64,000 bases of DNA from Escherichia phage ST2. Positions within the stretch are counted from its first letter, which is position 1. Each line of letters starts with the position of its first letter. This document shows, in pieces, positions 52,178-52,633 of the stretch. The notes beneath the pieces were generated by a model. The model was not told the DNA's origin, searched no databases, and worked only from the letters and a program-made list of their open reading frames with translations. Position numbers and translations under genes: made by a program. The DNA lies in sequence record OM982647, one strand, 5' to 3'.

Positions 52178-52633
52178 TTATTTTAGATCTTCGGCCCAAT
52201 CTAGTTTTAAGGGTTCTTTGTATTCACGGTCGAGAATAACCGGAATAGCTACATCACCACTGAATGATAGTTGGCCAACGTTATATGATAACGTTATATG
52301 TGGAGTGTAGTCGTCGAAATCATGAGTAGCACCTAAAGCTCGTGCGTACTGATGACGACATCTAAGATATTCGGAATCAAGAACTAAAACCAGTACAGCG
52401 CCGTCGTCAGTTTTCCATACCTCAAAGTGTCCTGATTCGGCAATAGAATAACTACCACTAGACGTAGTATATGGTATGTTTACACGTGAATAACAAATTG
52501 TTGAATGAAGCTTTTCACGTGGTACTGGATTAGGAATTCTTAATTTACGCTGGAGGTCTTCCAGCGCATCAAGTGTTAATTCCGAAAATTTAGCTGCGAC
52601 GTAGAGGCCTTGTGAAAAGTCCTCAAATTTCAT
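52178..52633 (-). CDS. 57B: 2H phosphoesterase, Acb1-like (T4 57B position) anti-CBASS cyclic-nucleotide phosphodiesterase
   Basis: 151 aa; two H-x-T/S-x motifs (HSTICY, HITLSY); next to 57A and gene 1. Confidence 0.8.

Follow-up and report, generated by a model that had tools for sequence, protein, structure and literature searches.

Acb1 of phage T4, the product of gene 57B, was found by activity-guided fractionation as a cGAMP-degrading enzyme; it cleaves 3'3'-cGAMP and cUA, as well as cAAA, independently of metal, does not cleave cGG or cA4, and its deletion makes T4 sensitive to CBASS (PMC9117128). Nine further Acb1 homologues, which the main text of that study leaves unnamed, all cleaved 3'3'-cGAMP and cAAA (PMC9117128). 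The catalytic tetrad of the T4 enzyme is H44/T46/H113/T115 (Hobbs et al. 2022, PMC9117128). Substrate bases stack on Y12, W74, F107 and W147, the N6 of an adenine is contacted by E141, and a C-terminal lid of residues 145-152 closes over the substrate (PMC9117128). Structures are available for Acb1 of Erwinia phage FBB1, both apo (7T26) and with cleaved 3'3'-cGAMP (7T27). More distantly related is 2H PDE-9 of Burkholderia phage BCSR5, deposited as Acb1 (9Q2G/9Q2Y), which has the 2H fold and degrades 3'3'-cGAMP, but carries its lid at the N-terminus rather than at the C-terminus as in Acb1 and cleaves 2'3'-c-di-AMP poorly. Within the genus Mosigvirus, gp156 of phage MM02 has been named Acb1 (Doherty et al. 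2025, PMC12657230). In the literature searched, we found neither a biochemical assay of any Mosigvirus, RB69, JS09 or PhAPEC2 Acb1 nor deletion data for a Mosigvirus acb1.

We analysed a stretch of 64,000 nucleotides from Escherichia phage ST2 (the window) and found that the slot between ipI and 57A, which acb1 occupies in T4, is filled by an open reading frame on the minus strand that starts with ATG at 52633, reaches its stop at 52178 at full length, without frameshift or premature stop, and encodes a 2H phosphoesterase of 151 amino acids. An earlier note had given the coordinates of this Acb1-like gene (52178-52633) correctly and left out its strand. It had drawn on two motifs, HSTICY and HITLSY; both are present, with their histidines at residues 43 (HSTI) and 112 (HITL), and the translation contains no other match to H-x-[TS]. 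Two or more such matches are also found in three of the 64 mechanically called open reading frames of 100-200 amino acids across the whole window, and in eight of the 87 that are at least 100 amino acids long. Because other reading frames carry the motif at least twice as well, the pair by itself is weak evidence, and the identification as Acb1 is therefore based on homology.

That homology extends over the entire protein. The Acb1 family profile PF23474 was matched from its first position to its last (1-144 of 144; E=1.8e-58, with 196.8 bits where the cut-off is 27), a phmmer search of the PDB returned FBB1 Acb1 (7T26/7T27, E=7.9e-59), and BLASTP aligned the protein with T4 57B/Acb1 (NP_049750) without gaps at 128 of 151 identical residues (85%, E=2e-102). 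All homologues returned belong to PF23474, except for one 99-residue fragment that has no Pfam entry. The resemblance to T4 Acb1 that the earlier note had proposed is thus borne out by identity, by the full-length family match and by a gene order that is the same in both phages. The ST2 protein is one N-terminal residue shorter than its T4 counterpart, and it is encoded by a member of Mosigvirus whereas T4 belongs to Tequatrovirus. By analogy with the characterised enzymes, the reading frame at 52178-52633 almost certainly encodes a functional Acb1, the orthologue in Mosigvirus of T4 gene 57B.

The earlier note had named alignment to T4 Acb1 as a check, and in that alignment the catalytic histidines are conserved, H43 and H112 corresponding to T4 H44 and H113. 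All nine residues named in T4 are identical in the ST2 protein, with the numbering offset by one: the tetrad is H43/T45/H112/T114, the stacking aromatics are Y11, W73, F106 and W146, the adenine contact is E140, and the lid spans residues 144-151. The lid itself reads LDWAEDLK in ST2 against LDWADDLK in T4, the sole change being the conservative D149E, and its tryptophan is retained. Across an alignment of 39 homologues, with identity down to 29%, the tetrad is invariant. The 23 substitutions that separate the ST2 and T4 proteins are mostly conservative and none falls on a named residue. FBB1 Acb1, at about 61-63% identity to the ST2 protein, has the same tetrad, glutamate and tryptophan but carries F at T4 position W74 and Y at T4 position F107, where ST2 keeps the T4 residues.

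Conservation of this kind bears directly on whether the gene is still in use. Natural loss-of-function alleles of acb1 do arise, as in nonsense-mutated Bas43 and in Bas35 escaper mutants, and are selected by Panoptes-type guard systems, so a decayed or inactive copy might be kept merely through its position inside the transcription unit of gene 1 and 57A. The ST2 reading frame, however, is intact, retains every catalytic and substrate-binding residue and has a dN/dS of 0.05 against T4, and the same protein recurs at 99% identity or more in 118 phage records. We give the inactive-copy explanation almost no credence.

A different question is whether an active enzyme of the Acb1 family might have shifted its substrate preference relative to T4, for example towards weaker cleavage of 2'3'-c-di-AMP or cA3, the decoy nucleotides of Panoptes, and thereby evade that system. 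Twelve of the 23 substitutions cluster at T4 positions 54-81, around the base-stacking W74, and could alter kinetics or preference; a 2025 preprint, moreover, describes related 2H phosphodiesterases that differ in 2'3'-c-di-AMP cleavage, with selectivity set by the core and not by the lid. Yet ST2 Acb1 shares with T4 every residue for which contact with substrate is known, and phage MM02, whose Acb1 is 99% identical, is listed as Panoptes-sensitive (PMC12657230), although the Acb2 of MM02 could account for that sensitivity. We regard a shifted preference as improbable. If true, it would be a natural case in which a phage has adjusted a promiscuous nuclease so as to evade a guard system. Since the ST2 enzyme is 85% identical to T4 Acb1 and keeps its functional residues, an unexpected substrate range is unlikely.

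The predicted fold places the protein in the same family. AlphaFold run from the single sequence gave a pLDDT of 38.6 and an unusable model, and we therefore used a model built with a 46-sequence alignment, which reached a pLDDT of 89.3. Its best matches in the PDB are FBB1 Acb1 7T26, with a TM-score of 0.96 normalised to the target and 0.87 normalised to the query and an rmsd of 0.9 Å, and 7T27. After FBB1, the structural ranking continues with the phosphodiesterase of Burkholderia phage BCSR5, followed by cellular 2H enzymes (LigT) at TM-scores of about 0.5. The BCSR5 enzyme belongs to the same structural group as ST2 Acb1 but shares only 16-18% sequence identity with it (phmmer E=0.008). 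The last four residues of the model have pLDDT below 50, which is consistent with the flexible lid of the apo crystal (PMC9117128).

Database labels point elsewhere. RefSeq calls the copies in PhAPEC2, T4 and many other phages 'RNA ligase', and phrog_755, described in the same words, matches the ST2 protein at E=5.2e-65. On that reading the protein would be an RNA ligase or a LigT-type RNA-repair enzyme (2'-5' RNA ligase / 2',3'-cyclic phosphodiesterase) that acts on RNA ends and not on immune signals. The 2H fold is indeed common to LigT, and Foldseek returned Escherichia coli LigT chains with E of about 1e-4. The superposition of LigT on the model is nevertheless poor (TM 0.42-0.56, rmsd 6.6-9.2 Å) when set against the 0.96 and 0.9 Å of Acb1 7T26. 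Cellular 2H phosphoesterases such as E. coli LigT (5LDI, 1IUH among the structures of this type) share with ST2 Acb1 the fold and the two HxT/S motifs, but they exceed it in size, have no Acb1 lid, act on other substrates and are only 13-17% identical to it, with TM-scores near 0.5.

Profile searches agree with the structures. The 2'-5' RNA ligase superfamily profile PF13563 scored 16.1 bits (E=0.012), below its cut-off of 27, and covered residues 69-131 only; PF02834 (LigT family) gave no match to the ST2 protein at E up to 10, and NCBIfam gave no match either. The ST2 protein furthermore keeps the equivalents of E141, which reads the adenine, and of W147 in the lid, and its T4 orthologue is a cGAMP-degrading enzyme whose deletion sensitises T4 to CBASS (PMC9117128). 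With PF13563 below threshold, NCBIfam silent and the structural match to LigT poor, we rejected the 'RNA ligase' label; an RNA-repair function is very unlikely. LigT is the source of the label, a superfamily name that was carried over, and the superfamily fold is all that Acb1 and LigT have in common.

The Acb1 of ST2 is far from unique. The 2 kb around acb1 match the Mosigvirus Escherichia phage vB_EcoM_PhAPEC2 at 99.4% identity, and the gene itself is 100% identical in nucleotide sequence to the PhAPEC2 gene (protein YP_009056733). MM02 gp156 (QBQ79204) is identical at 150 of 151 residues, the sole difference being I64V, so that there is essentially no difference between the MM02, PhAPEC2 and ST2 proteins; in database records the MM02 and PhAPEC2 copies go under 'hypothetical protein' or 'RNA ligase' and not under Acb1. 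Phage Bas47 (AlbertHofmann) has a protein that is 99.3% identical. By tblastn, a homologue is encoded in 1469 phage records, those with at least 99% identity being the 118 mentioned above. At the DNA level acb1 is only 74% identical to T4, and a dN/dS of 0.051 against T4, with dS saturated, indicates strong purifying selection on an intact protein. The earlier note had called this a known anti-defence gene, and the naming of the near-identical MM02 gp156 as Acb1 (PMC12657230) agrees with that. The ST2 gene is an already known one, an ordinary Mosigvirus copy of the characterised Acb1. Among the phage records that our searches listed, not one names the gene Acb1; those that annotate it use 'hypothetical protein' or 'RNA ligase'.

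The surroundings of acb1 are those of T4. Comparison of Pfam and PHROG assignments with the T4 annotation shows that ST2 and T4 share the order ipI, 57B, 57A, gene 1, gene 3, gene 2. The neighbours named in the earlier note proved to be correctly identified. On the minus strand, as acb1 is, lie, directly upstream of it, gene 57A (52633-52863), which encodes the tail-fibre chaperone (PF17594, GP57, E=2.4e-24; phrog_1002), and gene 1 (52868-53602), which encodes the dNMP kinase (PF21448, E=1.4e-96). Gene 1 heads the apparent unit 1-57A-57B, and gp3 and gp2 are encoded on this strand as well. Downstream of acb1, also on the minus strand, ipI (51813-52100) encodes internal protein I (PF11634, E=2.6e-49), which tblastn aligns with its T4 counterpart at 85% identity.

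The TAA stop of 57A and the ATG of acb1 have one base in common (TAATG) at the junction AGAAGAAGAATAATGAAATTT, where T4 has an overlap of 4 nt according to its annotated coordinates. This overlap suggests co-transcription of the two genes and possibly translational coupling. A terminator scan of 51500-54400 found no terminator-like hairpin between acb1 and its neighbours. Because of the one-base overlap and the lack of such a hairpin, we infer that gene 1, 57A and acb1 are co-transcribed.

Promoter assignment is more tentative. The spacer upstream of gene 1 (53603-53656, minus strand) contains a TATAAT hexamer, shared with T4, and a GCTT-containing element upstream of it, and GTTATAATC is conserved when the spacer is aligned with that of T4; this spacer is possibly the promoter for gene 1, 57A and acb1. 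A scan with the sigma-70 consensus did not pick this candidate. Between acb1 and ipI, the spacer (52101-52177, minus strand) holds GTTTACA, a 17-nt gap and TACTAT preceded by TG. The promoter scan matched it at 52163-52135 with 9 of 12 positions and the TG present, and both hexamers are conserved in T4, so that this element may be an early-promoter-like site. Over 51500-54400 the sigma-70 scan returned eight promoter-like sites against 9.1 expected from shuffled sequence, that is, no excess; of these, only the T4-conserved site in the acb1-ipI spacer deserves notice. We also considered a T4 late promoter (TATAAATA) for acb1 and rejected it: one copy lies inside gene 1 (53218-53225, minus strand), and it carries no weight because the window has four copies against 7.8 expected by chance.

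The product of ipI has a defence-related role of its own in T4, where IPI inhibits the restriction enzyme GmrSD, whose target is DNA with glucosyl-hmC. As in T4, ipI and acb1 make up a small anti-defence pair in ST2; Hobbs et al. remarked on the adjacency of the two genes in T4 (PMC9117128). Mosigvirus DNA, in contrast to the DNA that GmrSD targets, is reported to contain arabinosyl-hmC (PMC8594841).

Beyond ipI the minus strand carries a run of small reading frames up to the small stable RNAs described below. Those at 49710-50054 and 50387-50902 are followed by frames resembling Trna.2 (50907-51197), Trna.3 (51194-51556) and Trna.4 (51557-51763), the last of which is hydrophobic. Just beyond the small RNAs, at 48858-49322 on the minus strand, a frame of 154 amino acids begins with MKSYAEFLTE, like the MKTYKEFISP of IPI. 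We take this N-terminus to resemble the sequence that targets T4 internal proteins to the capsid, and the frame may encode a lineage-specific internal, injected protein. A Pfam search with the 154-residue protein gave no match, and none of the six small reading frames (the five in 49710-51763 and that at 48858-49322) has a Pfam match above threshold. For T4 ipII and ipIII, tblastn found no match anywhere in the window. The six frames that flank the ipI/acb1 pair could be further anti-defence candidates.

The same region carries counterparts of two T4 small stable RNAs on the minus strand. The homologue of rnaC (species 1), at 49449-49587, is identical to T4 at 138 of 139 nt, and that of rnaD (species 2), at 49594-49713, is 86.8% identical to T4. 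Because nearby acb1 is only 74% identical to T4 DNA, rnaC would be either under unusually strong constraint or recently exchanged. The two RNAs lie in a gap that is free of open reading frames and unannotated (49323-49709). The pair is present in about 794 phage records, mostly unannotated or lying under a small 'hypothetical protein' coding sequence, as in MM02.

An Rfam scan of 48500-53000 returned three tRNAs and one sub-threshold YrlA match that overlaps them, and no Rfam family matched rnaC or rnaD. The tRNAs, called by both ARAGORN and Rfam, are tRNA-Arg(tct), tRNA-Asn(gtt) and tRNA-Met(cat) at 50074-50307 on the minus strand. The RefSeq record of PhAPEC2 (NC_024794) puts the same three on the plus strand, one of them as 'tRNA-Asx'; this plus-strand placement looks like an annotation error. 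MM02 has only the Arg and Met tRNAs there, and in T4 there are eight tRNAs together with segB.

The window encodes a second protein that acts on cyclic nucleotides. An orthologue of Acb2, the cyclic-nucleotide sponge encoded by T4 vs.4, lies at 36412-36648 on the minus strand, with 69% identity to T4 and a match to the Acb2/Tad1 hairpin domain (PF24729, E=4.5e-18). ST2 thus encodes both of the anti-CBASS proteins known from T4, with about 16 kb between them in the window. MM02 is among the Panoptes-sensitive phages, the MM02-like phages Bas46-47 were used in plaque assays, and MM02-like phages also carry Acb2 (PMC12657230). Because Acb2 is present as well, the Panoptes sensitivity of MM02-like phages is not assignable to Acb1, and the presence of Acb2 bears on how any Panoptes or CBASS phenotype is to be interpreted.

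By analogy with the T4 and FBB1 enzymes, ST2 Acb1 would be a small 2H phosphoesterase that works without metal. A cyclic di- or trinucleotide made by CBASS would be taken into the U-shaped pocket of the enzyme, where its bases would stack on Y11, W73, F106 and W146 and one adenine would be read through E140; the C-terminal lid (144-151) would then shut over the bound substrate. H43/T45 and H112/T114 would provide acid-base catalysis as the 2'-OH of an adenosine attacks the 3'-5' phosphodiester, and a 2',3'-cyclic phosphate intermediate would be resolved into a linear product with a 3'-phosphate, the cut thus falling 3' of adenosine. Substrates of such an enzyme would include 3'3'-cGAMP, cUA, cAAA and similar molecules but not cGG or cA4. 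With the signal removed, CBASS effectors would stay inactive and the phage would complete its replication.

Alongside the observed homology, conservation of functional residues, fold, synteny and purifying selection, we infer from the T4 enzyme that ST2 Acb1 would need no metal to cleave cyclic di- and trinucleotides that contain adenosine, and that the ST2 allele would have an anti-CBASS effect in vivo. The case for activity is strong because all nine of the further homologues assayed cleaved 3'3'-cGAMP and cAAA.

Beyond correct annotation, the result on acb1 itself matters little, and its practical value is in the annotation. Because the gene is labelled 'hypothetical protein' or 'RNA ligase', inventories of anti-defence genes in therapeutic Mosigvirus phages that go by product name would miss it. 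For the biology of the phage, Acb1 and Acb2 together predict resistance to many CBASS systems, and together they also predict vulnerability to guard systems of the Panoptes type.
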